A stretch of DNA of 64,000 nt. Source: Candidatus Latescibacterota bacterium (GTDB taxonomy: Bacteria > Latescibacterota > UBA2968). Below, piece after piece: positions 22,204 to 46,067 of this stretch. The position numbers and the translations under genes were made by a program. The notes beneath the pieces were generated by a model that was not told where the DNA came from, made no database searches, and was given only the letters and a program-made list of their open reading frames with translations. Position 1 is the first letter of the stretch, and every line of letters begins with the position of its first letter. The stretch is taken from assembly GCA_965220765.1 (NCBI GenBank), contig OZ244847.1:3200699-3264698 (forward strand), read 5' to 3'.

Positions 22204-22204
22204 T

Positions 22205-26409: not shown

Positions 26410-29400
26410 ATGAACAGGCGAGCGAAATCAATAATCTGGATTCTGGTCGGCGCTGGCATTCTGCTGTCAATAGGGGCGATACTCGTCACGGGGGGCTATG
26501 CCAATGGCATTTTGCGCGATTTGGCGCAGCGCGCCCTGTCCCGGCAAGGGGATGAGGTCGGTCTGATTGGTGAGATTCAGGGCAATCCGCTGGGTGATTG
26601 TCGCATCGTTGATGTGCAGATCGGAGATAGGGCGCGGGTGGATACGCTCGATGTGACGTACAGTTTTTGGAACCTGCTTACAGGAAAAGTTGTGATTCAT
26701 CGGCTGCGGTTGTCGGGAATCGAGATGCGACTTGATGCTTCTGATGAAGAGACCGAGACGTCGATATGGGATGCTCCTCCCCCCCTGGATTTAGATATCG
26801 AGTCGCTGGAGATTGCGGATGCCAATGTCCTGGTTGATGGTACACAGGTGCGCGATATCGCGATAGAGGGTGCTATTTTCGCGGGAGAATCTGAGTATCG
26901 TTTGATCCTGGAGCGTTTTCGTTCGGTGCAATTCGATCCGCCACTGGAGGTGACCAATCTATCTGGTATTGCCATTTTACAGGCCGGTCACTTGCGACTG
27001 AACGACGTGGCGTTGCACACTCACGGCTCTCGCATTTTGCTGCGCGGCAGGGTTTGGCAATTGGATAATCCCGAGGTGGATCTCGTAGTGGAAGCCGATT
27101 CTCTATGGCTGGCAGATCTCAGGCCCCTGATCGATCTACCCACACGCACTATGCAGATGCGTGGAAGAGTGAAAGGTAGCCTGCAATCCCTTGTTACAGA
27201 ATTAGTTGTGAAAGATAAAGAAGCTTCAATTGCGTTTAATGGCGTCATGGGGATTGCGCCGTTTACAGTGCGGGGAGATGCGATTTTTGAGATCGAGACC
27301 AATGATCTCATCTCGTTGGGATACACAGGATCTGATACTGATTTACCCCGTATCAGTACAAGCCTGGACGGGGTGATTTCTTTCGCAGTGGATTCCTCTG
27401 GCGTGGAGAGTGCCATTGCCAAGGGTGTTTTTCGGCGGGTGCAGTTTGGAGATGCGCGATTCGATTCCGTGCGTTTTGCCGTCAATTTGGCAAATGACCT
27501 GTTGCAAACGCAAGTCACCGCTAATGGACCAAGTGGCAATATAGTGGGCAATGGAGAAGCGCGGTTGACCACCTGGAATGGCGAATGGGAAATGCGATTT
27601 CGCGATCTATATGCTAATCATTTACCCGGTGTACCCAAAAAAGTCGGGCGGACGACGGGGCGTATTGATGGTGCGAGATATGTAGATCAACGGTTTTTTA
27701 TCGATCATTTTGAGACACAATTACAGGATTGGGGAACGCGCGTCAATGGAAATGGGCAATTGCATTTTGAAGGAGACAAACCGGCTATTGCGGGGAATAT
27801 CCAGGCGGAGGTCGCGTTACCTCGTTTGACAGACACAGACAGGTGGGGGACATTGCTGACTCTTGAGGGCAATGTAAATGGCATCTCGGGTGGCGATTTG
27901 ACTGTTGAATTGGCGGGGAATATTGCGGGGAATGCTGCGGCAGACAGTTTTAGCGTTTCTGCGCTGGTCAATTCTGAAGGGAGGTCTGATATTCGCGCTG
28001 GTCTGTCGGGCACAGGTGGAGTATTTTCCGCTCAGGGGCATATTGATCGGCATTCTGAGGGCCAATGGCGAATGGATGTACAGGATTTAGAGGCGATAGG
28101 TGAGGTGATTGATGTGGATTTATCGGGGACGTTGGATCTATCGGGCACCTGGTCGGGGACGCTGGATGCGCCCGGTTTTTCTGCACAAGGTGGCGCGGAT
28201 AGCCTTGTGGTTGAGGGTATTCCGCTTCAAAATGTTGCAATTGAGACTCAATGGACGCGCCCAGATTCGGGAGCTATTAACCTGCAAGTGGATCGCTTGA
28301 CCTGGGGTGAACGGGCGTTGCAGGCGGTTTTTTTTAATGCTATGTACAATCGTGGCGAGACATCATTTTTGTTAGGTAGCGGCGAGCAGGTAGATAACCA
28401 TGTGCTTTTTCGGGGGCGCGCAGGGCAAGAAGAAGACCTATTCCAGGTGGCGATGGATTCGCTATACGTTAAGGTTGATCAGGTGGTGCTGCATAACGAG
28501 GGACCCGTGCAATTCGCGTATTCGTCATCTCGCGGCGTCCACATTGAACATCTGGTGCTTTCTGGGCCAGCGGGGCGTCTGGTCGCGCGGGATCAACAGG
28601 GCTTTCAGGCGACCGTAGAGGTGTTGTTGAAAGATCTGGACTTGCGGACCTGGGCATTTCTGGCGGGTGCTTCAGATATGGGGGGTATTCTCAATGGTGA
28701 AGTACTTTTTGCTGGCACATTGACCGATCCTCTTATTTTTATTCAATTCACTCTTGCAAAGGGCAAAATATCGAGCGTGGAGTTCGATAGTGCCACAGGA
28801 GAGATGTCTCTGGGCAATGATAGGATACATTTTGAGGTGAAAGTCGTACCTGATAGAGATGAAGCTCTGACACTGATTGGCAGTTTTCCCATTACAGGTA
28901 CAGGTGATATGCATCTACGCGCTCAGTCTGAGGGGATCGCGTTGAAGACACGCCAGAACACAGTGGATGAAAAAACGAAATTGGTCGGGCGAAAAATATC
29001 CGAGAGATTGAGATTTGGCACAGTGCCAAACGCGTTTTTCGATGTGGATGAGGGAATTTCTGGGATGTTATCTTTCGATCTGGAAGGACGCGGCCGTTTT
29101 GAGCAACCGGATATCCGAGGGGTAATCGAAATTCGAGATGGGACGTTCCACATGCCCGATCTACATCGGTCTTACACACCTGTTTCAGGGCGTGCTGTGT
29201 TTGGCGACGGGAAAATTCAGATTGACAGTCTTGCGATTGGGAATTCGGCGAATCTTTCTGGCGATATAACGCTTGAGGGTTTTTTGCCGATCAGATGGAA
29301 TTTATCTGCACAATTTCGCGATTTTGAACCGGTTGCTCGCCCCGAATTACAAATCGTAACAGATGGACAATTGCAGATTGAGGGAACGCCGCAGGGCAAC

Positions 29401-30276
29401 AATGTTAAGGGCAAGTTGGCGATGAAACAGGCTGAGATTCGCCTGGCGGAATTGCTTGGAGTACCGAGCCTGACGACGAAACAGGCAGATATTCGCTTGA
29501 CGGAATTGTTCGATGAATCGGGTACAGAGATGCCACCATTTCTGATGGCTCCGGAAATACGCCTGCAAGTGTCTGCTGACAGACAGGTGTGGTTGCGCGA
29601 CCCGGTCTTTGAGGTGGAAATTGGGGGTGATCTGGATATAATAAAAAATCGCGAAGATTCGCGTATTTACGGCGCGATGTCGAGCCGCCGGGGCAATTAC
29701 ATCTGGCAAAACCACCGCTTGCGTATTACACAGGGCGAGGTTCAATTTCAGGGCAGGCCCGACTGGAACCCCGATCTGGATATTCGCGCCGAGACGCGTG
29801 TGCGCGCTGTGGATACGGGGCCTGTCGATATTATTGTCACAGTGGGGGGGACATTGACATATCCGCAGATTTCGTTTGACAGCAGCGATCCGTCATTTGG
29901 AGGGGATGTGAGGGATATTGCATCTCTATTGTTGACTGGCAGACCCGCTGACCAATTTAAGTTTTCTCGCGAGCACACCCTGGATCTGTTTGCGGGGGTT
30001 GTTGCAAATCGCCTGGGGCGGCATATTGGGCAAAAATTACATCTGGATGTGGTGGAGATCGACTTTGGCGAGGGCAGTATCTCCAGGATTCGATTGGGCA
30101 AGTATATTGGAGACAGGTTATTCATGAGTTATGCAAAGGATATTTCGACCACGGCTTATGAAGCGGCAATGGAGTTTGAAGTATTGTCAGGGCTGACATT
30201 GGAAGCGAGTCAGATAGAAGAGGATAATCGACGCAGACGAGGATCGGTAGGGTTATTCTGGAAAAAAGAGTGGTGA
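26410..30276 (+). CDS. tamB: TamB-like translocation and assembly module protein (AsmA-like with DUF490 C-terminus)
   Basis: 1288 aa with an N-terminal TM anchor, long repetitive beta-rich periplasmic span, and a conserved DUF490-type C-terminus. Genomic pairing with tamA. Confidence 0.7.
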   Translation: MNRRAKSIIWILVGAGILLSIGAILVTGGYANGILRDLAQRALSRQGDEVGLIGEIQGNPLGDCRIVDVQIGDRARVDTLDVTYSFWNLLTGKVVIHRLRLSGIEMRLDASDEETETSIWDAPPPLDLDIESLEIADANVLVDGTQVRDIAIEGAIFAGESEYRLILERFRSVQFDPPLEVTNLSGIAILQAGHLRLNDVALHTHGSRILLRGRVWQLDNPEVDLVVEADSLWLADLRPLIDLPTRTMQMRGRVKGSLQSLVTELVVKDKEASIAFNGVMGIAPFTVRGDAIFEIETNDLISLGYTGSDTDLPRISTSLDGVISFAVDSSGVESAIAKGVFRRVQFGDARFDSVRFAVNLANDLLQTQVTANGPSGNIVGNGEARLTTWNGEWEMRFRDLYANHLPGVPKKVGRTTGRIDGARYVDQRFFIDHFETQLQDWGTRVNGNGQLHFEGDKPAIAGNIQAEVALPRLTDTDRWGTLLTLEGNVNGISGGDLTVELAGNIAGNAAADSFSVSALVNSEGRSDIRAGLSGTGGVFSAQGHIDRHSEGQWRMDVQDLEAIGEVIDVDLSGTLDLSGTWSGTLDAPGFSAQGGADSLVVEGIPLQNVAIETQWTRPDSGAINLQVDRLTWGERALQAVFFNAMYNRGETSFLLGSGEQVDNHVLFRGRAGQEEDLFQVAMDSLYVKVDQVVLHNEGPVQFAYSSSRGVHIEHLVLSGPAGRLVARDQQGFQATVEVLLKDLDLRTWAFLAGASDMGGILNGEVLFAGTLTDPLIFIQFTLAKGKISSVEFDSATGEMSLGNDRIHFEVKVVPDRDEALTLIGSFPITGTGDMHLRAQSEGIALKTRQNTVDEKTKLVGRKISERLRFGTVPNAFFDVDEGISGMLSFDLEGRGRFEQPDIRGVIEIRDGTFHMPDLHRSYTPVSGRAVFGDGKIQIDSLAIGNSANLSGDITLEGFLPIRWNLSAQFRDFEPVARPELQIVTDGQLQIEGTPQGNNVKGKLAMKQAEIRLAELLGVPSLTTKQADIRLTELFDESGTEMPPFLMAPEIRLQVSADRQVWLRDPVFEVEIGGDLDIIKNREDSRIYGAMSSRRGNYIWQNHRLRITQGEVQFQGRPDWNPDLDIRAETRVRAVDTGPVDIIVTVGGTLTYPQISFDSSDPSFGGDVRDIASLLLTGRPADQFKFSREHTLDLFAGVVANRLGRHIGQKLHLDVVEIDFGEGSISRIRLGKYIGDRLFMSYAKDISTTAYEAAMEFEVLSGLTLEASQIEEDNRRRRGSVGLFWKKEW

Positions 30277-30991: not shown

Positions 30992-32692
30992 TTATTTTAG
31001 GGTAATTTTTAATAGTTCAGCCACTTCTTCTGATGTGCGGTATTTGCCGTCAAAGAGTTGGATGAGATAGAGTTGGTAGGTCATGTAGCGCCCCAAAATG
31101 ATCGTGTGGTCTTCGCCTGCGAGGTGGCGTTGCCAGAGCTTGGAGGTGTTAGATGTGTTGTAGAGAAGATGGTCGCACAAATTTTTACCCGGCGATTGGC
31201 GCAACCAATTCGCGTAATCGGCAAAGGTCTGGGGCGCGGGATTGCGCAATCCGGTGAACCTCCGCAGGATTTTGACGGTCCAGGGTGAATGGGATATGGG
31301 AAGTCCCGTGGCCTGATAGGGAATATTTTTGAAATATTCTGGAAAGGTCTCGAGAAGCATCTGGCGGTAGAGGCGATTGTTGGCTTTTTGTTGTAGGGGA
31401 ATAGAATAGAGTAATTCCTGCACCTGATTGTCGAGGAATGGTAAGCGGTATTCAAGGCCGTGCAAAAGTCCCAGACGAGGGCCGTGCAGGGTGAACCCAC
31501 GCATGCGCCAATCTATGTAAAAAGCATGTGCCGATCCCGCATTGTTAAATGCGGTTTTGAGGTGTTGGGTCGTGTTGCGATCTACCCGAATGTGTAGCTC
31601 ATTTTTCAGGTATGCAGAGAATTTGTTGGAGGGAAATAGATGGCCTGCACCTGCTAACCCATCGCCTCCTGCTCCGTTGAGGAAAATATCACAGGCTTCT
31701 TTCTGTTGCTTGAGGTGTTCAATGCCGTGCATATGGAGCAGGTCGAGTGCGCCATCGGCATACCACACGCCTGAGATTCTCGGCAAGAGCCAATTTTGAT
31801 CATCCAAGGGCAGGACGGTATGTGGCGCGTTTTTTACGGATGCTGCCTGGGCAGCAATGCGAACATCCGCGCTGTCGGGATGACCGAATGTGAAGGTTCT
31901 GGGTGTGCGAGGCATGGCGGCGAGGATCGCACGCGAATCGAGGCCACCGCTGAGGGCGAGACCCGTTCGTCCTGTGGTTCTCTGTTCTACGGCAGTGCGA
32001 AAGCGCGCGCCCAATTCATGTGCCAATTCGCGCTGGGTGTGATGCCCTGTGAGGGGAGCAATATCATCCCAGGACCAGTAGCATTGCTGTGTAAGGCTAC
32101 CATCTGAGATGCGAAATGTCATTTGCGTTGCAGCGGGCACGGGCGCGACGCCTTCGAGCCATGTGCGATCAGAAGGCAATTGCCCGGTGGCGAAAAATAT
32201 GTCGCGAGAAATGGGGTCAATCACAGGTGAAAACTCGGGTAGCGCGAGAAATGCCTTGGTCTGAGACGCCCAGGCTATACGATTGCCCTGGCACGTCCAG
32301 TAGAGCGGGCGCAAGCCATAGCGATCGGTGATAATATGCAGTTCATTTTTTTGTGTATCGAAAATCACGCCGGAAAAAAGGCCATTAATGCGGTTTAATA
32401 GTTCGCGTCTATCCGCGACGATTTCAACTAAGAATTCAAGGTCGGAAGTAGCAGAGAGAGCCAGCGCGACGCGGTTGAAAAATTCGCCATCGAGATAAGC
32501 AATATGTCCCGATTGTGAATAAACTGGGGACACTGTACGCCAATCTGGCGCAAATGCGACGCCCGCAATGTGCGGGGCAAAGACGATGCGGTGCGCTTTT
32601 TGATGTACGACCAGGCTATCTGCCATGCGCGTGAGCGAGTGGGTGAGTTCACGGGAGGTAAGAGGCGATTGAGATATGAATCCGGCGAGCAT
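30992..32692 (-). CDS. Asparagine synthetase (AsnB) family protein lacking the N-terminal catalytic cysteine
   Basis: 566 aa with the PP-loop synthetase domain (LSGGLDSRAILAAM) and an Ntn-like N-domain. The N-terminus is MLAGF..., not MCGI. Confidence 0.7.
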   Translation of the reverse strand: MLAGFISQSPLTSRELTHSLTRMADSLVVHQKAHRIVFAPHIAGVAFAPDWRTVSPVYSQSGHIAYLDGEFFNRVALALSATSDLEFLVEIVADRRELLNRINGLFSGVIFDTQKNELHIITDRYGLRPLYWTCQGNRIAWASQTKAFLALPEFSPVIDPISRDIFFATGQLPSDRTWLEGVAPVPAATQMTFRISDGSLTQQCYWSWDDIAPLTGHHTQRELAHELGARFRTAVEQRTTGRTGLALSGGLDSRAILAAMPRTPRTFTFGHPDSADVRIAAQAASVKNAPHTVLPLDDQNWLLPRISGVWYADGALDLLHMHGIEHLKQQKEACDIFLNGAGGDGLAGAGHLFPSNKFSAYLKNELHIRVDRNTTQHLKTAFNNAGSAHAFYIDWRMRGFTLHGPRLGLLHGLEYRLPFLDNQVQELLYSIPLQQKANNRLYRQMLLETFPEYFKNIPYQATGLPISHSPWTVKILRRFTGLRNPAPQTFADYANWLRQSPGKNLCDHLLYNTSNTSKLWQRHLAGEDHTIILGRYMTYQLYLIQLFDGKYRTSEEVAELLKITLK

Positions 32693-32842
32693 GAAAGTGC
32701 CTATCTGAATACCGGTTGAAGTTCATCCGTGATTAGATGTAATCAATATAAGGAAAACTTCAGGATTTCCCTTTTCATTTTTCGTTTTTATTGGTACAAT
32801 AAAGCAGTTCTAATATCATCGCATTTAACCATAGAGGTCGGA

Positions 32843-34054
32843 ATGGCAGAAAAAAATTATAAGGTTCGCGCGGCGCATTGCAATTGGCGGGCGTCGGAGG
32901 AAGAAATATACCAGACGCTGCGCCGCATTACAGACCCATTGCATCGGTCGTGGGAAAAGCTGGAGAAAGCCAATCGGATTGTGATCAAGTTCAATATGAT
33001 GAAGCTACACAATCGCATTATTTACTACATGGGACGGCGGCGCGAGTTGGTCGATGACATGGTCGCACGCGCTGTGTTGCGTTTGTTGCGAGAACGCACC
33101 CGTGCGGAAATTATTGCGACGGATACCAATCCCTATACGCGCGACCATCTGATGGATGAAGATTTTAATTACGCACATATTTTGAAAGAATACGATGTGG
33201 GGTTTGTCGATTCAAACGCGCAACCGTTCAAACAGTATGACGTGCCGGGCGGTGGATGTATGTTTGACCGCTATACACTCAGCGCGTGTTTTGAAGGGGC
33301 AGAGGTGGTTTCTGTGGCAAAGATGAAGAATCATCTGTTTATGGGGATTACGCTTTGCATGAAAAATCTTTTTGGTCTGCCTCCAATCACGCTGCCACAC
33401 GGCCGCGTGCGATCCTATTATCACCACTTTATCCGCCTGTCTTACGTCTTGCCCGATTTGGGATTGATCACGCAACCTTGTCTGAATATTGTGGATGCAC
33501 TAACCGGGCAATGGGGGAGAGAATGGGGCGGACAGGGGCGTATCTGCAATGCGTTATTAGCAGGTGACCATGTAACCGCTACCGATGCATGTGGTACCCA
33601 TTTGATGGGTCACGACCCTGCGTCTGATTGGCCCAATCCGCCGTTTCGACGCGACCGCAACCATTTGCTGATTGCAGACAGGCGCGGTTTTGGTACGGTT
33701 GATCTGAGGGAGATTGATTTTGAGAGCGAGGTATCTGCGCCCCTATCCGAGTTTGATTCAGAGCGTACAGACAGCGAGGAAATTGTGGAAAGCTGGCGTC
33801 GCACCACCTGTGAGCAGGCATTGTTTTACCAGGACCGTCAGCGGGATATCGTTGACCGGTATCGGAATAAATTTATCTTTTTGCAAGATGGCGATGTGGT
33901 CTGGCACGGTGCAGATCCCGCCAATTTGGGTAGCCGCAGGCAGTTGAGCGGACAGAAAAAGGATCAGGGGATGTGGCTCAAGTTGGTCGATCCCGAAGAA
34001 ACTGAAGGCGAACGCTTTGAGACTTATGAGGCGTGTTTGAGGATGACGGGATAA
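32843..34054 (+). CDS. DUF362-family protein
   Basis: Motifs KMKNHLFMGITLCMKNLFG, IVDALTGQWGREWGGQG and ATDACGTHLMGHDP match the DUF362 consensus. The start is moved to the ATG at 32843 (GAGGT RBS) because the upstream in-frame extension looks non-coding. Confidence 0.55.
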   Translation: MAEKNYKVRAAHCNWRASEEEIYQTLRRITDPLHRSWEKLEKANRIVIKFNMMKLHNRIIYYMGRRRELVDDMVARAVLRLLRERTRAEIIATDTNPYTRDHLMDEDFNYAHILKEYDVGFVDSNAQPFKQYDVPGGGCMFDRYTLSACFEGAEVVSVAKMKNHLFMGITLCMKNLFGLPPITLPHGRVRSYYHHFIRLSYVLPDLGLITQPCLNIVDALTGQWGREWGGQGRICNALLAGDHVTATDACGTHLMGHDPASDWPNPPFRRDRNHLLIADRRGFGTVDLREIDFESEVSAPLSEFDSERTDSEEIVESWRRTTCEQALFYQDRQRDIVDRYRNKFIFLQDGDVVWHGADPANLGSRRQLSGQKKDQGMWLKLVDPEETEGERFETYEACLRMTG

Positions 34055-34079
34055 AATCCGCTGAGACAGTGCAATAGAT

Positions 34080-34802
34080 ATGGATATTTTGCGAACCGAT
34101 ACTGCCCATGTCTGGGCAGTGGATTTAGAGCGCGAGACACACATGTTGGCCCAGACGCTATCGGCAGATGAGTGGAGGCGTGCTGACAAGTTTGTCTATG
34201 AAAAGCACCGGGCGCATTTTGTTGCCGCACGCGGATGTCTGCGCGCGATTCTCGCAAAATACATGGATTGTAAGCCAGGTGAACTGGCTTTTTTTTATGG
34301 CGAACACGGCAAACCCGCTCTGGCACCTCCCTGGGATAAATCTCAGTTGCGATTTAACCTGAGCCATTCAGCTGGCCTGGCTCTTATCGCGGTTTCGATG
34401 CGCCATGAGATTGGGGTTGATGTTGAGCATCTCAGCCGCAAGGTCGGCCAGATGAAAGACATTGCGAAGCGTTTTTTCGCACCTGGCGAATACGAGCAGT
34501 TGTGCGCGTTGTCGCGAGAAGAACTGCGCCGGGCTTTTTTTTGTTGCTGGACGCGCAAAGAGGCATATCTGAAAGCCATGGGCGCTGGTCTTACCCATTC
34601 ATTAAAAAATTTTGAAGTGAGTTTGGGACGCAAAGCAGAATTGCTGTGGATAAAAGAAGGGAATACAGAAGATTGGACACTGCAACACCTTGAACCCGCG
34701 AAGGGGTATGTCGGCGCGGTGGCGATTGCGGGGAAAGATGTTGAGGTGAAGATAATGAAACACTTGTTGCGCGATCTTTGTCTGAATAAGGGTGTGAATT
34801 AG
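34080..34802 (+). CDS. 4'-phosphopantetheinyl transferase, Sfp/EntD type
   Basis: Two-lobed PPTase with motifs GKPAL, FNLSHS, and WTRKEAYLKAMG (W/FxxKEAxxK). 240 aa. Confidence 0.75.
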   Translation: MDILRTDTAHVWAVDLERETHMLAQTLSADEWRRADKFVYEKHRAHFVAARGCLRAILAKYMDCKPGELAFFYGEHGKPALAPPWDKSQLRFNLSHSAGLALIAVSMRHEIGVDVEHLSRKVGQMKDIAKRFFAPGEYEQLCALSREELRRAFFCCWTRKEAYLKAMGAGLTHSLKNFEVSLGRKAELLWIKEGNTEDWTLQHLEPAKGYVGAVAIAGKDVEVKIMKHLLRDLCLNKGVN

Positions 34803-34818: not shown

Positions 34819-37059
34819 ATGCAGGAGCAGATAATGGATCCTTTACTGGACAATGAACAAAACGGTAGTCTGAATTGGTTGAAACACGCTTTGCCCGAAG
34901 GGGAAGACGAACTCATTCGGGTACAGACCGATCTGGATGAAAAAGGTGACTTCGGAAACCAGTGGGTGGTGGTGACCCGCAATCGCGTGCTGGTGCGACA
35001 AAATGGCGCGATAGCAGATATTCCGATTTCCGAAATTGAACTGGCGCGAACCGAGGCTCTGGTGGGCGGTGCGCGTTTGGAAATACATCGAAAAAATAAG
35101 CCGACCGTGCATATTCCATATTCCATGACGCAGGCGCAAAAGTTTTCGGAGACTACGCGCGGGATTGAGCAACTGCGCAAGGGGCAGGAATTTTTTATTA
35201 ATGCAAATCTGGATCGCACAATCTGCGAATCGTGCGGTCGGCTATTGCCGGAAAAAAATGGGATATGTCCGGCCTGTTTAAACAAATTTGCAACACTGGG
35301 ACGCATTGCATCGTATTTGAAACCCTACAAGATACGCGCGATTGTGCTGGCACTGGCGTCTATTGTGACGACGGTTGCAGAATTGATTCCGCCTTATGTG
35401 ACAAAACTCATTGTCGATGATGTGTTGGTGCTGCCCGAGGGCGTAGAGGCGCTGTACGACGATCGGCTCAGTTTGCTCGGCTGGCTCGTGCTGGCTCTGG
35501 TGGGTATCCGGCTGATAACCTGGGGGGGAGAATGGGCGCACGGCTGGACAGTGACGTGGCTTTCCGCACGGGTGACTGCAGATATCCGCAGCCAGCTTTA
35601 CAGGTGTTTGGAGTTGCTATCCCTGCAATTTTACGACAAACGGCAAGTTGGCGCAGTTATGTCTCGCGTGACGACGGATAGCAGTCGTTTACAGATGTTT
35701 TTGGTCGATGGATTGCCCTATCTGGTGATCGAGGCGATGATGTTGCTGGGGATTCTCGCCGCGCTGTTTATGATGAGTTGGTCACTGGCTATTCTGGTGC
35801 TGATTCCCGTTCCGTTAATCATGATCTGGGGGTATGCGTTTTATCGGCGGATGCGGAAATTTTTTACCAGTTGGATGCAGTCGTGGTCTGACACTATGGC
35901 GCGGGTCAATGAAGCGCTCACGGGCATTCGCGTGGTGAAGGCATTTGCACAGGAAAAGCAGGAAATCAGGGTGTTCAAAAGGCGCAATGACAAATTGACG
36001 CGCATCGGTATTACGACAGAGGTCAACCGGGGCATTTTTTACAAAACGATGACCCTATTGACGGCGGCTGGCGTGATTATTGTATGGTATTATGGGGGGC
36101 TTGAGGTAATCGATGGGGAATTGACGCTCGGCACTTTGATGGCTTTTTACAGTTATATGATGTTGCTTTACGGCCCGCTGGAATGGTTTGGGATGGTCAA
36201 TTCGTGGATGACGCGTGCAATGGCCGGTGCAGAACGCATTTTTGAGATTATCGATACGCCTTCCGAAGCGTACCAGGACCCCAATGCCGTGCCGGTACCC
36301 GATATCGAAGGGCGCGTGAAGTTCGATGATGTCACATTTGGATACGACAAGAGCAAGCCCGTGTTGCACGAAATCAACCTCGAGGTCAAACCAGGAGAGA
36401 TGATCGGGCTGGTGGGAAAATCAGGCGTGGGCAAGACGACAACGGTAAATTTGATTTGTCGGTTCTACGATGTTGACCGCGGAAGCATTGAGGTGGATGG
36501 GGTGGATTTGCGCGATATTCGGCTGGAGGATTTGAGGTCTCAAATTGGCATTGTGTTGCAAGAGCCGTTTCTGTTTTCGGGCAGTATTGCGGAAAATATT
36601 GGCTATGGCAAGCCGGGCGCGACATTCGATGAGATTGTAGAAGCAGCCAAGACTGCCCATGCACACGACTTTATTGTGACAAAGCCCGATGGCTACGATA
36701 CGCTTATCGGCGAGCGCGGAGAATCGCTTTCGGGAGGCGAACGGCAGCGCGTGTCTATTGCACGAGCCATTTTACACGATCCCAGAATTTTGATCTTAGA
36801 CGAGGCCACATCGTCTGTTGATGTGCAAACTGAAAAGCGCATTCAAGATGCGGTTGCGCGATTGGTCAAAGGACGAACGACTTTTGCAATAGCCCATCGT
36901 TTATCCACCCTTCGCAATGCCGACCGGCTGGTGGTGATGGATGCCGGACGCATTGTGGAAATGGGAACGCACCGCGAATTGCTGGAAAAGAAAGGCATGT
37001 TTTACAAATTGGTGCAGATGCAAGAAGAGATTTCACAAATTATTGCAATTAAGGAATAG
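34819..37059 (+). CDS. ABC exporter (TMD-NBD half-transporter) with a ~160-aa N-terminal cytoplasmic extension
   Basis: Six-TM ABC_membrane domain and an NBD (Walker A GKSGVGKT, signature LSGGERQR, Walker B ILILDEATS). The N-terminal extension contains CESCGRLLPEKNGICPAC. Confidence 0.85.
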   Translation: MQEQIMDPLLDNEQNGSLNWLKHALPEGEDELIRVQTDLDEKGDFGNQWVVVTRNRVLVRQNGAIADIPISEIELARTEALVGGARLEIHRKNKPTVHIPYSMTQAQKFSETTRGIEQLRKGQEFFINANLDRTICESCGRLLPEKNGICPACLNKFATLGRIASYLKPYKIRAIVLALASIVTTVAELIPPYVTKLIVDDVLVLPEGVEALYDDRLSLLGWLVLALVGIRLITWGGEWAHGWTVTWLSARVTADIRSQLYRCLELLSLQFYDKRQVGAVMSRVTTDSSRLQMFLVDGLPYLVIEAMMLLGILAALFMMSWSLAILVLIPVPLIMIWGYAFYRRMRKFFTSWMQSWSDTMARVNEALTGIRVVKAFAQEKQEIRVFKRRNDKLTRIGITTEVNRGIFYKTMTLLTAAGVIIVWYYGGLEVIDGELTLGTLMAFYSYMMLLYGPLEWFGMVNSWMTRAMAGAERIFEIIDTPSEAYQDPNAVPVPDIEGRVKFDDVTFGYDKSKPVLHEINLEVKPGEMIGLVGKSGVGKTTTVNLICRFYDVDRGSIEVDGVDLRDIRLEDLRSQIGIVLQEPFLFSGSIAENIGYGKPGATFDEIVEAAKTAHAHDFIVTKPDGYDTLIGERGESLSGGERQRVSIARAILHDPRILILDEATSSVDVQTEKRIQDAVARLVKGRTTFAIAHRLSTLRNADRLVVMDAGRIVEMGTHRELLEKKGMFYKLVQMQEEISQIIAIKE

Positions 37060-37065
37060 GTTCTC

Positions 37066-39345
37066 ATGAATCACTTGCCCGGAAAACCGTTGATCGAAAA
37101 ACTCCCCCCATCCGTAGCAAAGAAGCTGCGTGCGGCAAAGCCCAATGGCGAGACCGTGCTGATGCAGGTGGCAACGGATCTGGACGAGTCCTTGAATTAC
37201 AACCCGCAGTGGGTGGTGGTGACTGATCAACAGGTGCTGGTAATTCCCGAATCGGGTGTGGATGGCACACAGTCGATAGCGATTGGCGATGTGGAAGACG
37301 TGAAAGTGGAAGAGCGCGTGGGGTTGGGTGCCATGGCGTTAACGCACAAAGCAGGACCTGGAATGCATGTACCTTATTCGCCATCTCTTACCGCTGTGTT
37401 TGCCGAAGTGGCAGATGGAATTAGGCAGTTGACGGATAATGAACCATTAACATTGCCCACAGAATTGGAGCAGACGCACTGCGAGCATTGTGGGCGTCGG
37501 TTGCCGGAAAAGAATGGTGTGTGTGCTGCGTGTTTGAAAAAGTGGCAGACGTTTCGGCGCATTGTGGGGTATATGGCCGCTTATCCCGTGCGTCTGGTCA
37601 TCACCATAGTCCTGACATTTGTCAGCGCTTTATTTACGCTGTTGCCACCCAAAATTACAGAGTATGTGATTGACGGTGTTTTGACAACGGGCTGGGATGC
37701 GGTTGAGATTCCATTTATCACATCAACGGATCGCCTTGATCGATTGGGACTGTTGATTTTAGGGCTTGTTATTATACGGCTGTTGATCTGGGGTGTCGAT
37801 GTGGTGATGGCGGCGTTGAGTCGGTCGTTGGGGTTGCGCGCTATCGGCGATTTGCGGGAAGATCTCTACCGCGCGTTTCAGATGGTGCCTGTTCGCTTTT
37901 ACGATCGGCGAAAAGTGGGTGCTCTGACGTCCCGCATGAATAATGATACGGACCGCATGGAAGTGATCATGACGTATGATTTTTATTATGTGTTTTCCAA
38001 CAGTTTGTTATTTGTCGGTATTTTGGGTTTTCTGGCGTGGATGAACTGGCAACTCACACTGTTTGTGATAGCACCTATACCGCTGATTGTGCTTGCCGGC
38101 ACACGGATATGGTACCGCATCATGACATTCTGGACGCAGTGGTCGGGAAAGTGGGGCAGGCTATCGGCACAGTTGAATGAGTCAATTCACGGTATTCGCG
38201 TTGTGAAGGCATTTGCACAGGAGGCAAAAGAGAGCGAGCGTTTTGACCAGTACAACGAAGACCTGCGCGATGTGGATACCCGGGGCGAACGGGCCTGGTT
38301 TGTTTTTTGGACTGTGACAAATCTGTTTATGAACGTCGGGGTGTTTTTTGTATGGTACTTCGGAGGAAAACAGATTCTGGGCGGTGAATTGACACTGGGT
38401 GCGTTAATCGCATTTATGAGTTATCTCTGGATGTTGTACCAACCATTGAGATGGTTTGGCGATTTTTACAGTTATATTTTGCGGGCATTTGCCGGCGCGC
38501 AGCGCGTGTTCGAGGTGATTGATTCCGAACCCGAGCCATACCAGAAACCCGATGCAGTGCGGCTGCCCAAAATTGAGGGTGGTTTGAAGTTCGAGTCCGT
38601 GTTCTTTGGTTATGATCCCGGCAAACCCGTGCTCAAGGGGGTTGATCTGGAAGTGAAGGCGGGCGAGATGATAGGACTTGTGGGCAAGTCCGGCGCTGGC
38701 AAGTCAACGCTTATCAATCTGATATGTCGATTCTACGACCCAGACCGCGGACAGTTGATGGTCGATGGCGTGCCGATGACCGATGTGAGTTTGCGCGATT
38801 TGCGATCCCAAATCGGAATGGTGCATCAGCAACCCTTTTTGTTTGACGGCACGATTGCCGAAAATATCGCCTATGGCAAACCAGACGCGACCTTTGACGA
38901 GGTAATGCGCGCCGCAATGGCAGCCGAAGCACACGAGTTTATTGTCAAGAAGCCCGATGGTTATGATATGCGGGTGGGGGAAAGCGGCGGGCGTCTGTCG
39001 GGCGGCGAAAAACAGCGGGTGTCTATTGCGCGGGCGATTTTGCACAATCCGCGGATTCTCATTCTCGACGAAGCCACTTCTTCACTGGATACACCAACCG
39101 AGAAAAAGATTCAAACAGCGATTGCACGTCTGGTTGAGGGACGCACGACATTTGCCATAGCACACCGTTTGTCAACGCTTCGCAGCGCGGATCGGCTCGT
39201 GGTGATGGATGAGGGCAATATCGCCGAAGTTGGTACGCATCAGGAGTTGATGGACCGGGAGGGTATTTTTTATCGCCTGGTCAGGACACAGCAAGAGACG
39301 ACGTTGGATATGTTTATGACTGCGGTGGGGGTAGAGTTGGAATAG
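37066..39345 (+). CDS. ABC exporter half-transporter, paralogous partner with the same N-terminal extension
   Basis: Same architecture as the upstream gene (Walker A GKSGAGKS, LSGGEKQR, ILILDEATS). N-terminal extension contains CEHCGRRLPEKNGVCAAC. Starts 7 nt after the first ABC gene, so likely a heterodimer. Confidence 0.85.
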   Translation: MNHLPGKPLIEKLPPSVAKKLRAAKPNGETVLMQVATDLDESLNYNPQWVVVTDQQVLVIPESGVDGTQSIAIGDVEDVKVEERVGLGAMALTHKAGPGMHVPYSPSLTAVFAEVADGIRQLTDNEPLTLPTELEQTHCEHCGRRLPEKNGVCAACLKKWQTFRRIVGYMAAYPVRLVITIVLTFVSALFTLLPPKITEYVIDGVLTTGWDAVEIPFITSTDRLDRLGLLILGLVIIRLLIWGVDVVMAALSRSLGLRAIGDLREDLYRAFQMVPVRFYDRRKVGALTSRMNNDTDRMEVIMTYDFYYVFSNSLLFVGILGFLAWMNWQLTLFVIAPIPLIVLAGTRIWYRIMTFWTQWSGKWGRLSAQLNESIHGIRVVKAFAQEAKESERFDQYNEDLRDVDTRGERAWFVFWTVTNLFMNVGVFFVWYFGGKQILGGELTLGALIAFMSYLWMLYQPLRWFGDFYSYILRAFAGAQRVFEVIDSEPEPYQKPDAVRLPKIEGGLKFESVFFGYDPGKPVLKGVDLEVKAGEMIGLVGKSGAGKSTLINLICRFYDPDRGQLMVDGVPMTDVSLRDLRSQIGMVHQQPFLFDGTIAENIAYGKPDATFDEVMRAAMAAEAHEFIVKKPDGYDMRVGESGGRLSGGEKQRVSIARAILHNPRILILDEATSSLDTPTEKKIQTAIARLVEGRTTFAIAHRLSTLRSADRLVVMDEGNIAEVGTHQELMDREGIFYRLVRTQQETTLDMFMTAVGVELE

Positions 39346-39368
39346 GGTAATTTTGATCGGAGATTTTG

Positions 39369-39938
39369 ATGGCTACGGATATGCTGGAGATGGAAGTCGA
39401 AGAGTTTGAAGAAAATACAGAGGAATGGAAGCCGATACCCATTGAGATGGTACATCCCGAATCGGTCGATCCGCGTAAGATCCGCCTGTTTAAGGAGCCA
39501 CAGTGGATTTTGCGGATGACGATTGAAGGAGATCGGTCCTATACCCGCGTGAAAGTGGTGCGGGCAGCACCTTTGACGGAACCGGACCGCTATTTTTGCA
39601 TTCTGGATATCAAGGACGAAGCGATCTGCCTGATCAAAGACCTGTCCGATTTGACAGAAGAGAGCCAGGTTCTGGTGCATGAGGAACTGGACAACCGGTA
39701 TTTGACGGCGGAGATCCAGAAGATCGTGGCATTGCAAAATGAATACGGGGTGACGTACTGGACTGTCGATACTGACCGGGGCAGGCGCGATTTTGTAGCC
39801 AAGTCCGTCGCTGAAAACGCGCAGTGGCTGGGAGAGACGCGGTTGATGATTTTTGATGTGGATAACAACCGCTTTGAGGTGCCCGATATAAGGGCGCTGG
39901 ACCGCCGCAGTCAGGGGTTGTTGGAATCGGTTGTGTGA
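39369..39938 (+). CDS. Hypothetical acidic cytoplasmic protein co-operonic with the ABC pair
   Basis: 190 aa, Glu/Asp-rich N-terminus, GGAGA RBS, 20 nt after ABC-2. No recognisable motifs, though it may correspond to a DUF family found with ABC exporters. Confidence 0.45.
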   Translation: MATDMLEMEVEEFEENTEEWKPIPIEMVHPESVDPRKIRLFKEPQWILRMTIEGDRSYTRVKVVRAAPLTEPDRYFCILDIKDEAICLIKDLSDLTEESQVLVHEELDNRYLTAEIQKIVALQNEYGVTYWTVDTDRGRRDFVAKSVAENAQWLGETRLMIFDVDNNRFEVPDIRALDRRSQGLLESVV

Positions 39939-39956
39939 TGCAACGCACCATTACTT

Positions 39957-39988
39957 AAAAGGGCATTTGAGAAAATGCCCTTTTTTTC
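39957..39988 (+). terminator. Rho-independent terminator ending the DUF362-PPTase-ABC operon
   Basis: Perfect 12-bp stem AAAAGGGCATTT/AAATGCCCTTTT with a T-run. Confidence 0.65.
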
Positions 39989-40090: not shown

Positions 40091-41845
40091 ATGCGAAAGA
40101 AAATAGGTCGAATTTTGGCGTGGATTGGTGGGATTACGGTTGGGCTGGTCGTCCTGATCATCTTGTCAGTTGTATTGTTCTCCGGCGAAGATCCCGTGCC
40201 CGATCAGGTAATTCTGGAGATCAATCTGGAGCAGGGGATTGCGGAGTATGTGCCCGAAGATCCGTTTGCAAAATTGATCGCAGACGAAACGCGCTCGCTG
40301 CGCGATGTAATAGGTGCTTTAGACGCGGCGGCTTCAGATGACCGCGTTGTGGGATTGCTGGCTCGTGGGGGCGGCGCGCCGATGGGCTTTGCACAGGCAC
40401 AAGAAATAAGAGATGCGGTTCTGGCTTTTGGAAAAAGCGGAAAACCCACCGCGATTTTTGCCGAGACATTTGGCGAATTTGGATCGGGAAATATCGGATA
40501 TTATCTGGCGACGGCATTTGAGCGCATCTATCTCCAGCCCTCGGGCGATGTGGGTTTGATGGGACTGGCGATGGAGCATCCCTTTGTCAGGGGAACATTG
40601 GATTCGCTTGGGATTGGGGTGCAAATGGATCACCGGTATGAATATAAAAATGCAATGAACCTATATACCGAAACCAAATTTACAGACGCGCATCGCGAGG
40701 CGAGTGAAGCACTTTTAAAGTCGATGGTCGATCAGATGGTCCTGGGTATTTCTCGGGCGCGGGGTACAACGCCCGAAGCTGTCCGCGACCTCATCAATCG
40801 CGGGCCTTTTTTGGCATTATCTGCCCATGCCGAAGGCCTGATAGATAGCCTGGCGTATTGGGATGAAGTACGCGATCTGGTGAAGCGCGAGCATGGCGAA
40901 GATTCCAAATGGTTGGATATAAAAAATTATCTCAAGCGTAGCGATGAAAAGCCATATAGTGAAGGTACAAAGGTGGCGTTGATATACGGCGTGGGACCTG
41001 TGCTTCGCGGGAAGAGTGCCTACGATCCCTTATATGGGTCTGCTACAATGGGCGCGAGTACCCTGACCAGTGCTTTTCGCGATGCAGTAAAGGATAAGGA
41101 TGTGCGTGCAATCCTGTTTCGAATAGACTCTCCCGGTGGGTCTTACGTTGCTTCTGATGCGATCTGGCGCGAGGTTGCCAAAGCGAAGAAGGCGGGCAAA
41201 CCCGTGATTGTATCAATGGGCAATGTGGCCGGTTCTGGAGGATATTTTGTGGCGATGAATGCCGATAAGATTGTGGCGCAACCCGGTAGCATCACGGGAT
41301 CCATTGGGGTATTAGCGGGAAAGTTCGTGACAACTGAATTTTGGAAACGCCTGGGCATTACCTGGGATACGGCGCAGGTGGGTGAAAACGCGCTGATATG
41401 GGGCACGGGTGCAGAATTTACACCCGAACAATGGGCGAAATTTCAGACGTGGTTAGATCGCATTTACGAAGATTTTACAGCAAAGGTGGGCGAGGGGCGC
41501 GACATGTCACAGGCTGATGTCCACGCTGTGGCAAAGGGGCGAATCTGGACTGGGGAGGACGCCAAAGCGCATGGCCTGATCGATGAATTGGGCGGCTTGA
41601 AGACCGCGATGCGTCTGATTCGGGAGGCATTGGAATTGGAAGCTGATGAATCTCTCAACCTCGTGGTATTTCCGAAAGAAAAGACGCTGATAGAACAGGT
41701 GATGGAAAAAGGCCTGATCCGCACGCTGAGCAATGGCGATGAGTTGGTAAGACTCGCCGCAGAATTGCAACCCGTTTTTCGCTTTGCGCGCACAGTGGGG
41801 CAACCACGACAGGTTTTGGAGATGACACCCATGAATATTCGGTAA
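40091..41845 (+). CDS. sppA: Signal peptide peptidase SppA (protease IV, 67K type)
   Basis: N-terminal TM anchor and two ClpP/crotonase-like repeats with the catalytic-region motif SMGNVAGSGGYFVAM. Confidence 0.85.
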   Translation: MRKKIGRILAWIGGITVGLVVLIILSVVLFSGEDPVPDQVILEINLEQGIAEYVPEDPFAKLIADETRSLRDVIGALDAAASDDRVVGLLARGGGAPMGFAQAQEIRDAVLAFGKSGKPTAIFAETFGEFGSGNIGYYLATAFERIYLQPSGDVGLMGLAMEHPFVRGTLDSLGIGVQMDHRYEYKNAMNLYTETKFTDAHREASEALLKSMVDQMVLGISRARGTTPEAVRDLINRGPFLALSAHAEGLIDSLAYWDEVRDLVKREHGEDSKWLDIKNYLKRSDEKPYSEGTKVALIYGVGPVLRGKSAYDPLYGSATMGASTLTSAFRDAVKDKDVRAILFRIDSPGGSYVASDAIWREVAKAKKAGKPVIVSMGNVAGSGGYFVAMNADKIVAQPGSITGSIGVLAGKFVTTEFWKRLGITWDTAQVGENALIWGTGAEFTPEQWAKFQTWLDRIYEDFTAKVGEGRDMSQADVHAVAKGRIWTGEDAKAHGLIDELGGLKTAMRLIREALELEADESLNLVVFPKEKTLIEQVMEKGLIRTLSNGDELVRLAAELQPVFRFARTVGQPRQVLEMTPMNIR

Positions 41846-42905: not shown

Positions 42906-43850
42906 ATGATTCGAGTTGAGAATTTGGAGAAGTATTACGGCGATATTCATGCACTCAAGGGCATTGATTTTGAGATTGACGACGGAGAAATCGTCGGGTT
43001 CCTGGGTGCAAATGGCGCGGGTAAATCTACGACATTGAAAATCATGACAGGCTTTTTAGCACCAAGTGCTGGCAATGTATTTATAGACGATCTGAATATT
43101 CAGGACAATTCGCTGGATATTCGCGAGCAAATCGGCTATTTGCCCGAAATGAATCCCCTGTACGGGGAAATGAGAGTGTATGACTATCTCGAGTTTATAT
43201 CTCAAGTTCGCAGTATAGACGCAGGAGAGTTCAAACCGGCTTTGGATCGCGTGGTCGAACAATGTGGTTTGCGCGATGTGATTCATCTGCCCATCTCTGC
43301 GTGTTCAAAGGGTTATAAACAGCGGGTCGGGCTGTCTGCCGCGATTTTGCACGATCCCAAGGTATTGATCTTTGATGAGCCGGTCTCCGGGCTGGATCCC
43401 AACCAGATTGTGGAGATTCGGAACCTGATTCGAGAATTGGGTCAGCAGAAGATGGTGATTATCTCCAGTCATATTTTGCAAGAGATTGAAGCCACTGTGG
43501 ATCGCATTGTAATTATTGATCACGGCGAAATTGTGGCCAATGGGACGAGTCAAGAATTGATGGCGGGATTTATGGGGCGCACGCAACTGACGCTCGATGT
43601 AAAATACGCCAGTGAAGAGAGTCTGGCTGCGTTGCCCAACAGCGTTGATGAGGTCGAAGTCGCAAATATAGAGATGGTAGATGGACGCAGTGTTTTGTCG
43701 ATAGAATACGCCCGAGAGGCGGATCCCCGCGAGGCGATTTTTGATTATGCCAAAAACAGTGGTTGGGCCATTTTGGAGATGACGCAAAATCAAGTTCTCC
43801 TCGAAGATGTGTTCCGCGGATTGACAGGGGAAGGAGGGAGCGATGAATAA
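42906..43850 (+). CDS. ABC transporter ATP-binding protein (GldA-like)
   Basis: Walker A GANGAGKST, signature VSGLDP region, Walker B LIFDEP. 314 aa, first gene of a four-gene cluster. Confidence 0.75.
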   Translation: MIRVENLEKYYGDIHALKGIDFEIDDGEIVGFLGANGAGKSTTLKIMTGFLAPSAGNVFIDDLNIQDNSLDIREQIGYLPEMNPLYGEMRVYDYLEFISQVRSIDAGEFKPALDRVVEQCGLRDVIHLPISACSKGYKQRVGLSAAILHDPKVLIFDEPVSGLDPNQIVEIRNLIRELGQQKMVIISSHILQEIEATVDRIVIIDHGEIVANGTSQELMAGFMGRTQLTLDVKYASEESLAALPNSVDEVEVANIEMVDGRSVLSIEYAREADPREAIFDYAKNSGWAILEMTQNQVLLEDVFRGLTGEGGSDE

Positions 43851-44556
43851 TGTAATGGCGATTTATCGCAAAGAAGTCGGCGCGTATTTCAAGAGTCCCA
43901 TGGCGTATATTTTTCTGGTGTTTTTCGCCCTGTTTAACGGCTATTTCTTTAGCAACACGTTCTTCCTGTTCAGTCAGTCCGATATGCGGGCGTTATTTAA
44001 TATTACGCCGATGATTTATCTGATTTTTGTGCCCGCAGTCACGATGGGGGTGCTTGCACGCGAAAAAAGTGCGGGCACATACGAGTTGATGGCGACACTT
44101 CCGATTAAAAATTTTGAACTTGTGATTGGGAAGTATTTGTCCGCATTTACCCTGGTGTTGGCCGGGCTGGGTTTTACGCTGATACATTTTTTCACGCTTT
44201 TGGTCGTTGGTACAAATATCGACTACGGCGGCATAATCTGTGGGTATTTGGGACTGGCTCTGGTAGGTGCATTTTACGCAGCTATTGGCACGTTCACAAG
44301 TAGTTTGACGGATAATCAGGTCGTTGCATTTATTCTCGCTGCGGTATTTGTTTTGGGATTTTATCTTCTCGACAAATTGCTGATTTTTGTGCCGGTGGCT
44401 CTTGCTGGGCCCATTCAGTTTATGGCGGTCGATTACCATTTGTCCAATATGTCGCGTGGAGTTGTCGATTCCCGCAATCTGGTGTATTTCGGATCGCTGA
44501 TATGGTTGTTTTTGGCGCTTACAGTGCGCGTCATTGATATGCGGAAGTGGAGGTGA
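43843..44556 (+). CDS. ABC-2 type permease (GldF-like)
   Basis: 237-aa six-TM ABC-2 permease overlapping the ATPase gene by 8 nt. Confidence 0.7.
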   Translation: MNNVMAIYRKEVGAYFKSPMAYIFLVFFALFNGYFFSNTFFLFSQSDMRALFNITPMIYLIFVPAVTMGVLAREKSAGTYELMATLPIKNFELVIGKYLSAFTLVLAGLGFTLIHFFTLLVVGTNIDYGGIICGYLGLALVGAFYAAIGTFTSSLTDNQVVAFILAAVFVLGFYLLDKLLIFVPVALAGPIQFMAVDYHLSNMSRGVVDSRNLVYFGSLIWLFLALTVRVIDMRKWR

Positions 44557-44558
44557 TC

Positions 44559-46067
44559 ATGCCCGTTATTGATTCCAAAAAGAGCTTTGTGATTTTTATT
44601 GTGGTGGCTATCGCACTCGTGGCACTTGGTAATCTGGTTTCTCGCAATTTTTTCTTTCGGCTGGACCTGACGGAGAATCAGATTTACTCGCTGTCGTCAT
44701 CGAGCAAGGTGATAATCGAGAAAATCGACGATTTTTTGACTGCTAAAGTCTATTTTTCCGAAAATTTGCCAGGGCAATACGGCAATACGCGGCGGTATTT
44801 GCAGGATATACTGGAAGAATACGCTGCGTATTCTGACGGCAATTTTCGGTTTGAATTTTACAGACCCGATGACGATGAACAATTGGCGCTTGATGCGCAA
44901 AAGTCCGGTATTCAGCCCGTGCAATTGCAGGTACTCGAAAACGACAAGTTTGAGGTGAAGCGCATTTATATGGGAATGGTGTTGCTCTACGGCGACAAAC
45001 GAGAGGTGTTGCCGGTTATTCAAACGACTACGGGGCTGGAATACGAGATTACAACGCGAATTAAAAAACTGGTTGACGATAACCGCTCTGTAGTTGGCGT
45101 AGCAAATACCGGGGCTTCGGCACCGGCAATGGAGCGAGTGAGTGCGCGACTTCGGGAAGCCTACGACGTGCGCTCGGTCTTTTTGAGTGCCGGCGTGCCC
45201 GACGATATTGAAATGCTGCTCGTCAATGGGGTTGTCGATTCCCTGTCTGAAGATGCACTCGGCGCGCTGAGGAGCTATATCAACTCGGGAGGGAACCTGT
45301 TTTTGGCGCAAAGCAAGATCAATGGCGATCTTCAAGCGCAGCGCGGGACGCCCATTCAGTCCAATATCTTCGAGGTGCTCGAACCCTTTGGCGTAAGCCT
45401 GGCTGACAATCTGGTAATGGATCGGATTTGTGGCACAGTGACGGTGTCACAGCAGCGCGGATTTTTGCGTTTTAATTCGGCGGTGGAGTATCCATTCTTT
45501 CCCGTATTGCAATCTTTTCCCGACCACGAAATTGTCAGTGGCTTAGAGCAAGTTCAGATGTTGTTTTCCAGTGAGATTGTTTACGATACGGCTGATTCAA
45601 CGCGTCTTGTGAAGCCGTTGTTGGTCACGTCAGACCATTCGGGCGCAGCGGCCGGGTTTATCAATCTCAACCCCATTCAAAATCAGGCATTTCAATCGCT
45701 CAACGAACCGGGCAAGGTGGTGGGAGTCTATGCGGCAGCTACCTCAGATAGCCCGGAAAATGTGATGAGCCAATTGGTGCTGGTTTCTACATCCGACTTT
45801 CTACTCGACAGCGGGGGAGGACAGGTGCCAGCCAATGGGATCTTTGTGATGAATACAGTGGATGTGCTCATTGGCGACCGCGACCTCGTGGCTTTGAGAT
45901 CGCGTGAGATTACAACGCGACCGTTGCAAACTGTGGAGGATACGACTCGAACCACTGTGAAAACCCTCAATATTGTGCTGCCCGTGCTGTTGGTCATTGT
46001 TTTAGGTCTGGTACAGTGGCGGCTTGTGGTGGCGCGTGCAAAGCGATTGGAGGCACTCTATGAGTAA
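44559..46067 (+). CDS. GldG-like ABC transporter auxiliary protein
   Basis: N- and C-terminal TM anchors flank a large periplasmic domain. Position and size match GldG. Start placed at the ATG at 44559 after a GGAGGTG RBS. Confidence 0.65.
   Translation: MPVIDSKKSFVIFIVVAIALVALGNLVSRNFFFRLDLTENQIYSLSSSSKVIIEKIDDFLTAKVYFSENLPGQYGNTRRYLQDILEEYAAYSDGNFRFEFYRPDDDEQLALDAQKSGIQPVQLQVLENDKFEVKRIYMGMVLLYGDKREVLPVIQTTTGLEYEITTRIKKLVDDNRSVVGVANTGASAPAMERVSARLREAYDVRSVFLSAGVPDDIEMLLVNGVVDSLSEDALGALRSYINSGGNLFLAQSKINGDLQAQRGTPIQSNIFEVLEPFGVSLADNLVMDRICGTVTVSQQRGFLRFNSAVEYPFFPVLQSFPDHEIVSGLEQVQMLFSSEIVYDTADSTRLVKPLLVTSDHSGAAAGFINLNPIQNQAFQSLNEPGKVVGVYAAATSDSPENVMSQLVLVSTSDFLLDSGGGQVPANGIFVMNTVDVLIGDRDLVALRSREITTRPLQTVEDTTRTTVKTLNIVLPVLLVIVLGLVQWRLVVARAKRLEALYE

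Follow-up and report, generated by a model that had tools for sequence, protein, structure and literature searches.

A predicted PH-like domain and a Cys4 zinc ribbon at the N-termini of a paired, DUF1854-associated ABC exporter in Candidatus Latescibacterota

Here, we present an analysis of two adjacent genes for ATP-binding cassette (ABC) half-transporters, here termed ABC-A (open reading frame 34819-37059) and ABC-B (open reading frame 37066-39345), in a 64-kb stretch of a Candidatus Latescibacterota genome (the window, to which all positions are relative). In both proteins, ~155 residues precede the elbow helix of the exporter core. We found that these residues comprise a predicted bacterial pleckstrin homology (PH)-like domain followed by a Cys4 zinc ribbon, and that this module is an ancestral trait of a known but mechanistically unstudied exporter clade and not peculiar to this locus. 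The features of the two genes are listed below; residue numbers refer to ABC-A unless stated otherwise, and AF2 stands for AlphaFold2 and pLDDT for its predicted local distance difference test score.

34819..37059, + strand: ABC-A half-transporter, 746 aa, with PH domain, Cys4 zinc ribbon, elbow helix, six transmembrane (TM) helices and nucleotide-binding domain (NBD), from the open reading frame and its translation
34900..35184, + strand: predicted PH-like domain of ABC-A, residues ~28-122, from AF2 secondary structure (pLDDT 76-89)
35221..35283, + strand: Cys4 zinc ribbon of ABC-A by motif, residues 135-155, with C136, C139, C150 and C153 and an LPEKNG knuckle
37066..39345, + strand: ABC-B paralogous half-transporter, 759 aa, with the same architecture as ABC-A, from the open reading frame and its translation
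37147..37440, + strand: predicted PH-like domain of ABC-B, residues ~28-125 of that protein, 38% identical to the PH domain of ABC-A
37477..37539, + strand: Cys4 zinc ribbon of ABC-B by motif, residues 138-158 of that protein, with C139, C142, C153 and C156

Architecture of ABC-A and ABC-B

ABC-A and ABC-B are half-transporters of a type IV exporter (Sav1866/MsbA/TmrAB-like, ABCB-type). Their genes are separated by 6 nt between the stop codon of ABC-A and the start codon of ABC-B, and, when aligned from start to finish with the N-terminal regions included, the two proteins share 49% identity. The Pfam domain ABC_membrane (PF00664) covers residues 176-454 of ABC-A and begins at residue 177 in ABC-B, and ABC_tran (PF00005) covers residues 516-665 of ABC-A and is also present in ABC-B; no Pfam family scored above threshold within residues 1-175 of either protein. 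In the AF2 model of full-length ABC-A, which was generated from a 40-sequence alignment and has a mean pLDDT of 83.6, the core consists of an elbow helix (residues 156-165), six long TM helices and the NBD, and the top Foldseek matches to this core were 5mkk, 6quz, 4q4h and 2hyd. The motifs GKSGxGK(T/S)T, LSGGE(R/K)Q, ILILDEATSS and IAHRLST are found in the NBDs of both proteins.

For a comparison of gene organization, we used 80 related loci together with 10 kb around each. Orthologous A-type and B-type genes lie adjacent to each other in 53 of them, spanning Latescibacterota, Gemmatimonadota, Zixibacteria and some Poribacteria, while a single A-like gene is present in 27, mainly in Poribacteria. 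Because the A-type/B-type pairs are conserved in 53/80 loci, we suggest that ABC-A and ABC-B form a heterodimer. As a side observation, some complete Poribacteria chromosomes contain two unlinked single genes for PH/zinc-ribbon ABC proteins, both of which are A-like (L035/L077, L036/L064, L043/L061, L044/L075 and L055/L068); neither DUF1854, the partner gene described below, nor any conserved context was found within 10 kb of these genes.

The best matches to the core were TmrAB and TM287/288 (5mkk, 3qf4 and 4q4h; Foldseek E ~1e-41, target-normalised TM scores of 0.84-0.91 and 36-38% identity), which are also encoded by adjacent paralogous half-transporter genes. However, unlike ABC-A and ABC-B, TmrAB and TM287/288 have no N-terminal PH/zinc-ribbon domain, and the alignments to TmrAB, TM287/288, MsbA and Sav1866 are confined to the ~580-residue core, in agreement with the statement in an earlier, sequence-only reading of this DNA that typical exporters lack such an extension. 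Moreover, exporters of the TmrAB/TM287-288/TAP type have one degenerate ATP site, whereas the NBDs of ABC-A and ABC-B are both canonical in sequence, with Walker A, the Walker B Glu, the signature motif and the H-loop His. In PCAT1 and HlyB (6v9z and 7sgr; core match E ~1e-37), an N-terminal cytoplasmic C39 peptidase or C39-like cargo-recognition domain is mounted on the same exporter core, in a position to deliver cargo to the inward-facing cavity; this domain has a different fold and belongs to a different sequence family than the PH domain and zinc ribbon, and the likeness is one of functional analogy. Peptidase_C39 had no Pfam match in ABC-A or ABC-B, and the HlyB and bacteriocin exporter models TIGR01846, TIGR01193 and TIGR03796 align only from residue ~160-175 onward.

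The N-terminal module and its distribution

In the AF2 model, a short helix (residues 19-24) lies ahead of seven strands (residues 31-39, 45-53, 56-61, 64-69, 73-81, 84-91 and 94-101), which are capped by a C-terminal helix (residues 103-121), giving a PH topology at a pLDDT of 76-89. Conserved residues of this domain include D38, W49, T53, G83, L87 and F109. The Pfam family bPH_3 (PF14470), which has a gathering cut-off of 23 bits, scored above threshold on the relatives P0283 (32.4 bits) and P0268 (23.6 bits) and matched eight of 40 family members at E<=0.01. We suggest, based on the predicted model, that a bacterial PH fold is the right assignment for this domain. Sequence and profile searches of the PDB gave no meaningful match for the N-terminal domain or for DUF1854.

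After the PH helix, a linker leads into a Cys-rich segment (residues 131-155; AF2 pLDDT ~75) in which the zinc ribbon directly abuts the elbow helix ahead of TM1. The Cys residues have the spacing CxxC-N10-CxxC in ABC-A as well as in ABC-B. The module lies on the cytoplasmic side, as indicated by the established topology of type IV exporters and by the elbow helix right behind the second CxxC. The four Cys residues are invariant in 20/20 homologous N-termini, are present in 24/25 divergent full-length cluster representatives, and are all retained in 120 of the 122 representatives of 50%-identity clusters that cover these columns. Matches of this segment to catalogued zinc ribbons are weak: the Pfam families DZR and DZR_2 matched the N-terminal domains of the window proteins at E ~0.04, matches on relatives were also weak, and in the PDB there were weak profile matches to the zinc knuckles of L37e and MetRS.

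The four regions of the proteins differ in conservation. Expressed as family mean pairwise identity and as identity between ABC-A and ABC-B, respectively, the values are 38% and 38% for the PH domain, 56% and 71% for the zinc ribbon, 45% and 38% for the elbow helix plus transmembrane domain (TMD), and 63% and 71% for the NBD. We also considered that the module could have arisen from a mis-called start codon or a chance motif, and rejected this explanation in view of the conservation of the module across phyla.

The module is widespread. A profile of the N-terminal region, searched against 1.84 billion clusters at 50% identity, matched 1033 representatives at E<=1e-3 and 520 at E<=1e-10, far exceeding chance. 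In a scan of one genome per GTDB species, at least 279 stretches encode a relative; the nearest, 93-99% identical, are from metagenome-assembled genomes of Candidatus Latescibacterota, and further relatives are from Poribacteria, Gemmatimonadota, Planctomycetota and Zixibacteria. Altogether, the clade is common among uncultured phyla, many of them sponge-associated, and the order of PH domain, linker and Cys4 element running into the elbow helix was found in every examined member of the DUF1854-partnered exporter clade.

These results support in part what the sequence-only reading had claimed for the two proteins. The extensions of ~160 residues, the motifs that it quoted and the identically spaced Cys residues are confirmed by the open reading frames, their translations and the alignment of ABC-A with ABC-B; its PH-like beta domain agrees with the AF2 topology and with the bPH_3 scores on relatives; and the Cys4 motif is conserved in orthologs, a test that it had named itself. 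It had also held that the module predates the split between A and B; this is correct, and the module is much older still, as a betaproteobacterial single-gene transporter has it.

DUF1854, the catalogued family and the gene neighbourhood

Two further features complete the exporter locus downstream of ABC-B.

39366..39938, + strand: DUF1854 protein, 189-190 aa, with a probable ATG start at 39369; likely third subunit
39957..39984, + strand: intrinsic-terminator-like hairpin, a 12-bp perfect stem AAAAGGGCATTT...AAATGCCCTTTT followed by a T-run, 19 nt past the DUF1854 stop codon

The DUF1854 protein is a member of the Pfam family PF08909 (130.2 bits versus a cut-off of 26.8) and scores 87.8 bits with the NCBIfam model NF052234, named "cyanophycin metabolism-associated DUF1854 family protein", below its equivalog cut-off of 150, which places it outside the equivalogs of the cyanophycin-linked branch. 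Its AF2 model (pLDDT 77.7) has two beta-meander-plus-helix subdomains and a disordered acidic N-terminal tail (residues 1-30), and it is highly conserved, the mean column identity among 20 orthologs being 66%. A gene for DUF1854 lies directly downstream of the ABC gene pair in 43 of the 80 loci, and three relatives (P0181, P0286 and P0287) have DUF1854 joined to the C-terminal end of the transporter in one protein. Because of this position in 43/80 loci, the natural fusions and the finding of Price et al. (bioRxiv 10.1101/072470) that DUF1854 shows cofitness with its ABC transporter, we infer that DUF1854 is a cytoplasmic third subunit of the exporter. With a hidden Markov model sensitive enough to detect the Ralstonia protein described below at E=8e-17, DUF1854 was not found within 10 kb at 37/80 loci, including all 27 single-gene loci; the PH domain and the Cys4 element are fully kept in these 37 loci. 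Two proposals regarding the origin of DUF1854 failed: a relationship to the N-terminal domain was rejected (hhalign probability of 1%), and an internal duplication was unsupported (when its two halves were compared with hhalign, only 16 columns could be aligned, at E=0.015).

The hairpin downstream of the DUF1854 gene is one strong site, and counts of such sites in the region are no higher than in shuffled sequences. It probably ends the transcription unit and separates the exporter operon from the gene for SppA (40091-41845), which follows the module in several Latescibacterota.

The best NCBIfam match of both ABC-A and ABC-B is NF052233, named "cyanophycin metabolism-associated ABC transporter", a full-length equivalog model of 766 positions with a cut-off of 880 bits. 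ABC-A scores 671.5 bits, with residues 19-737 aligned to model positions 21-745 in one stretch, and ABC-B scores 594.6 bits over its residues 11-745; both scores are below the cut-off. Judged by these alignments, the full-length architecture, N-terminal region included, is shared with NF052233. Moreover, DUF1854 as a partner and its link to the ABC transporter have already been described by Price et al. (bioRxiv 10.1101/072470), whose system is that of Cupriavidus and Acidovorax and who, based on fitness data, proposed polymer efflux for the cphA-linked system. In the literature searched, theirs was the sole paper on DUF1854; it does not discuss the N-terminal module, and no description of the module was found elsewhere in that literature. 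Thus, the word "novel" in the sequence-only reading was too strong, given that NF052233 spans the module and the DUF1854 link had been described. Cyanophycin researchers state that no process for the export of cyanophycin is known (PMC9974463).

A cphA-linked member of the family is encoded on the p56D2 megaplasmid of Ralstonia wenshanensis (KOL96_03340/03345, L081; 1460 bits with NF052233 and 234 bits with NF052234). In this system, the transporter is encoded by one ABC gene (768 aa) that is followed by DUF1854, and two cphA genes (cphA/cphA') lie beside them in divergent orientation. Its N-terminus shares D38, W49, T53, G83, the four Cys residues, L143, P144 and R162 with the window proteins, and its zinc-ribbon motif reads VCPTC...NCPQC. 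The two systems differ in several respects. While the Ralstonia system has one half-transporter gene, the window has two paralogous ones; no cphA/cphA' was found near the window genes, and both of their NCBIfam scores are below the equivalog cut-offs. In addition, the DUF1854 protein of the window has an acidic tail of ~30 residues (39369-39460), for which the Ralstonia protein (L081 11222-11692, 156 aa) is too short. By tblastn (E<=1e-3), neither the 64-kb window nor the 10 kb around any of the 80 related loci contained a CphA homolog, and the ~900-aa open reading frames at 50261-55846, considered as cphA candidates, were rejected because they are TonB-dependent receptor genes. We conclude that the locus is a paired, non-cphA-linked variant of a catalogued exporter family.

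Directly upstream of ABC-A, two genes were identified by Pfam and NCBIfam matches.

32729-34054, + strand: DUF362 protein
34080-34802, + strand: HetI-like 4'-phosphopantetheinyl transferase (PPTase)

Both accompany the module solely in close relatives (L001-L021) and not in the more distant loci; they are lineage-specific neighbours outside the conserved module. The sequence-only reading had proposed co-occurrence of the exporter with DUF362, the PPTase and a 190-aa acidic protein; this holds for the last of these, which is DUF1854, the known partner, and does not hold for the first two beyond L001-L021. The DUF362, PPTase and ABC genes are tightly spaced, with gaps of 16-25 nt. On the minus strand of the same region (30992-34802), a gene for an AsnB-like amidotransferase is divergent from DUF362/PPTase and is syntenic just in L001-L021; it has weak similarity to lasso-peptide and macrolactam cyclases, far under the respective cut-offs. 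The AsnB-like, DUF362 and PPTase genes might represent a lineage-specific biosynthetic add-on. Clustering of the genes in the 80 loci revealed no recurrent neighbours other than the ABC genes, DUF1854, the lineage-restricted SppA, DUF362, PPTase and AsnB genes, and abundant paralogs of the GFO/IDH/MocA type.

Elsewhere in the window, genes for an AAA_15/AAA_21 ATPase (372 aa) and then a DUF3226 protein (209 aa) at 21085-22834 (+) match the PADLOC models PDC-M38A (311 bits), AbiLi (228 bits) and PDC-M38B (184 bits) and are a candidate AbiL-like anti-phage defence pair. Just upstream of the exporter locus and syntenic in close relatives, genes for an Omp85/POTRA protein (591 aa) and then a TamB-domain protein (1288 aa) at 24578-30276 (+) form a TamA/TamB-like outer-membrane assembly pair. 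Downstream of SppA and an amidohydrolase gene, an ABC-2 type transporter is encoded at 42906-46067 (+), comprising an ATPase, a permease and an ABC_transp_aux/DUF7088 (GldG-like) auxiliary protein. The GC skew is strongly positive (0.09-0.27) from 1 to ~46 kb, where nearly all genes are on the plus strand, and drops to ~0 over 46-56 kb, where two genes for TonB-dependent receptors of ~900 aa are on the minus strand.

Possible roles of the N-terminal module

At about even odds (a probability of roughly 0.5), we propose that the N-terminal module is a cytoplasmic platform that handles cargo, or a partner protein, at the entrance of the transporter. According to this model, the heterodimer of ABC-A and ABC-B would have a PH/zinc-ribbon module next to each of the two lateral entrances of the inward-facing cavity, where membrane and cytoplasm meet. 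The zinc ribbon, rigid and stabilised by zinc, would connect the PH domain to the elbow helix and hold it in a fixed position there, and the PH domain would capture or position a cytoplasmically made cargo, or a partner carrying it, and pass it to the transporter in a handover analogous to that by the N-terminal C39 and C39-like domains of PCAT1 and HlyB. Because the zinc ribbon is conserved like the NBD, we suggest that it functions as a connector or contact element, and the observation that the divergence of the PH domain tracks that of the TMD is consistent with a function of the PH domain in cargo handling. A parallel may also lie in leaderless bacteriocin export, in which the cytoplasmic peptide EntDD14 depends for its export on an ABC transporter and on DdE and DdF, two PHb2-type proteins encoded at the enterocin DD14 locus (PMC8657885). 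DdE and DdF are free-standing membrane proteins that belong to another bPH family (YdbS/YdbT-like), whereas the PH domain in the window proteins is fused to the transporter and followed by the zinc ribbon.

Several points weigh against this model. With bPH_3, the window proteins themselves remain below the cut-off (ABC-A, 14.0 bits, E=0.073; ABC-B, 16.0 bits, E=0.017), and the basis of the PH assignment is the AF2 topology together with the Pfam matches on relatives. Similarly, the Cys4 element is a zinc ribbon by its motif, and zinc binding is predicted from this motif. The very high conservation of the zinc ribbon, with its LPE(K)NG loop, could be explained equally well by a contact with the transporter core that is allosteric or regulatory. 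Finally, the gene neighbourhoods of the 80 loci yield no cargo candidate.

A different role, possible though in our view on the unlikely side, is that of a regulatory sensor, in line with the regulated, possibly substrate- or signal-gated exporter inferred in the sequence-only reading. Here, either ligand binding by the PH domain (to a small molecule or a lipid of the membrane) or a redox or zinc switch at the Cys4 element would allosterically gate ATPase activity or transport via the elbow helix, and the module would not handle cargo. PH domains commonly bind lipids or ligands. Moreover, the position of the zinc ribbon right against the elbow helix and its NBD-like conservation are as expected for contact with an invariant core, and the module is present whatever the genomic context. 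However, no ligand-binding signature was identified in it, the locus has no associated genes for sensors or regulators, and divergence in the PH domain keeps pace with that in the TMD, which suits adaptation to cargo better than recognition of a universal signal.

It is quite improbable that the module mainly serves assembly, with the PH domain and zinc ribbon docking DUF1854 and DUF1854 being the real cargo adaptor. The DUF1854 gene lies next to the ABC genes at the window locus, as in many others, but the 37/80 loci without DUF1854 within 10 kb still keep the PH domain and the Cys4 element, which disfavours a purely DUF1854-docking function. In addition, DUF1854 follows the C-terminal end of the NBD in the natural fusions, a long way along the sequence from the N-terminal domain, and DUF1854 and the N-terminal domain have no profile similarity. 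Least probable of all, and very unlikely, is that the locus encodes a cyanophycin-type polymer exporter, orthologous to the cphA-associated exporter, for an amino-acid polymer made by a CphA whose gene lies in another part of the genome. In its favour, the top NCBIfam matches are NF052233 and NF052234, and polymer efflux has been proposed for the cphA-linked system (Price et al., bioRxiv 10.1101/072470). Against it, all scores (671/594 bits versus 880 and 87.8 versus 150) are under the equivalog cut-offs, the tblastn search detected no CphA homolog in the window or in the 10 kb around the 80 loci, and the ABC gene is duplicated here and single in the cphA-linked system. Because no cyanophycin synthetase gene was found nearby, this branch probably exports something other than the product of a neighbouring cyanophycin synthetase.

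Returning to the cargo- or partner-handling platform, a broader form of this proposal is that the PH/zinc-ribbon module and DUF1854 together make up an unrecognised cytoplasmic cargo-selection apparatus that defines a class of exporters for cytoplasmic polymers or peptides. Cyanophycin-like export in betaproteobacteria would then be one branch, while in Latescibacterota, Gemmatimonadota and some Poribacteria the product that the pair exports would be another one. We offer this idea as a speculation and regard it as unlikely.

The practical result of our analysis is a corrected annotation: the locus encodes a DUF1854-type three-gene exporter module and is not an orphan novelty. The N-terminal module, the transporter and DUF1854 belong to a widespread clade without a solved structure or a biochemical function. 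Once known, the roles of the N-terminal domain and DUF1854 would explain how this clade selects its cargo, and they could also show whether bacteria export cyanophycin-like polymers.

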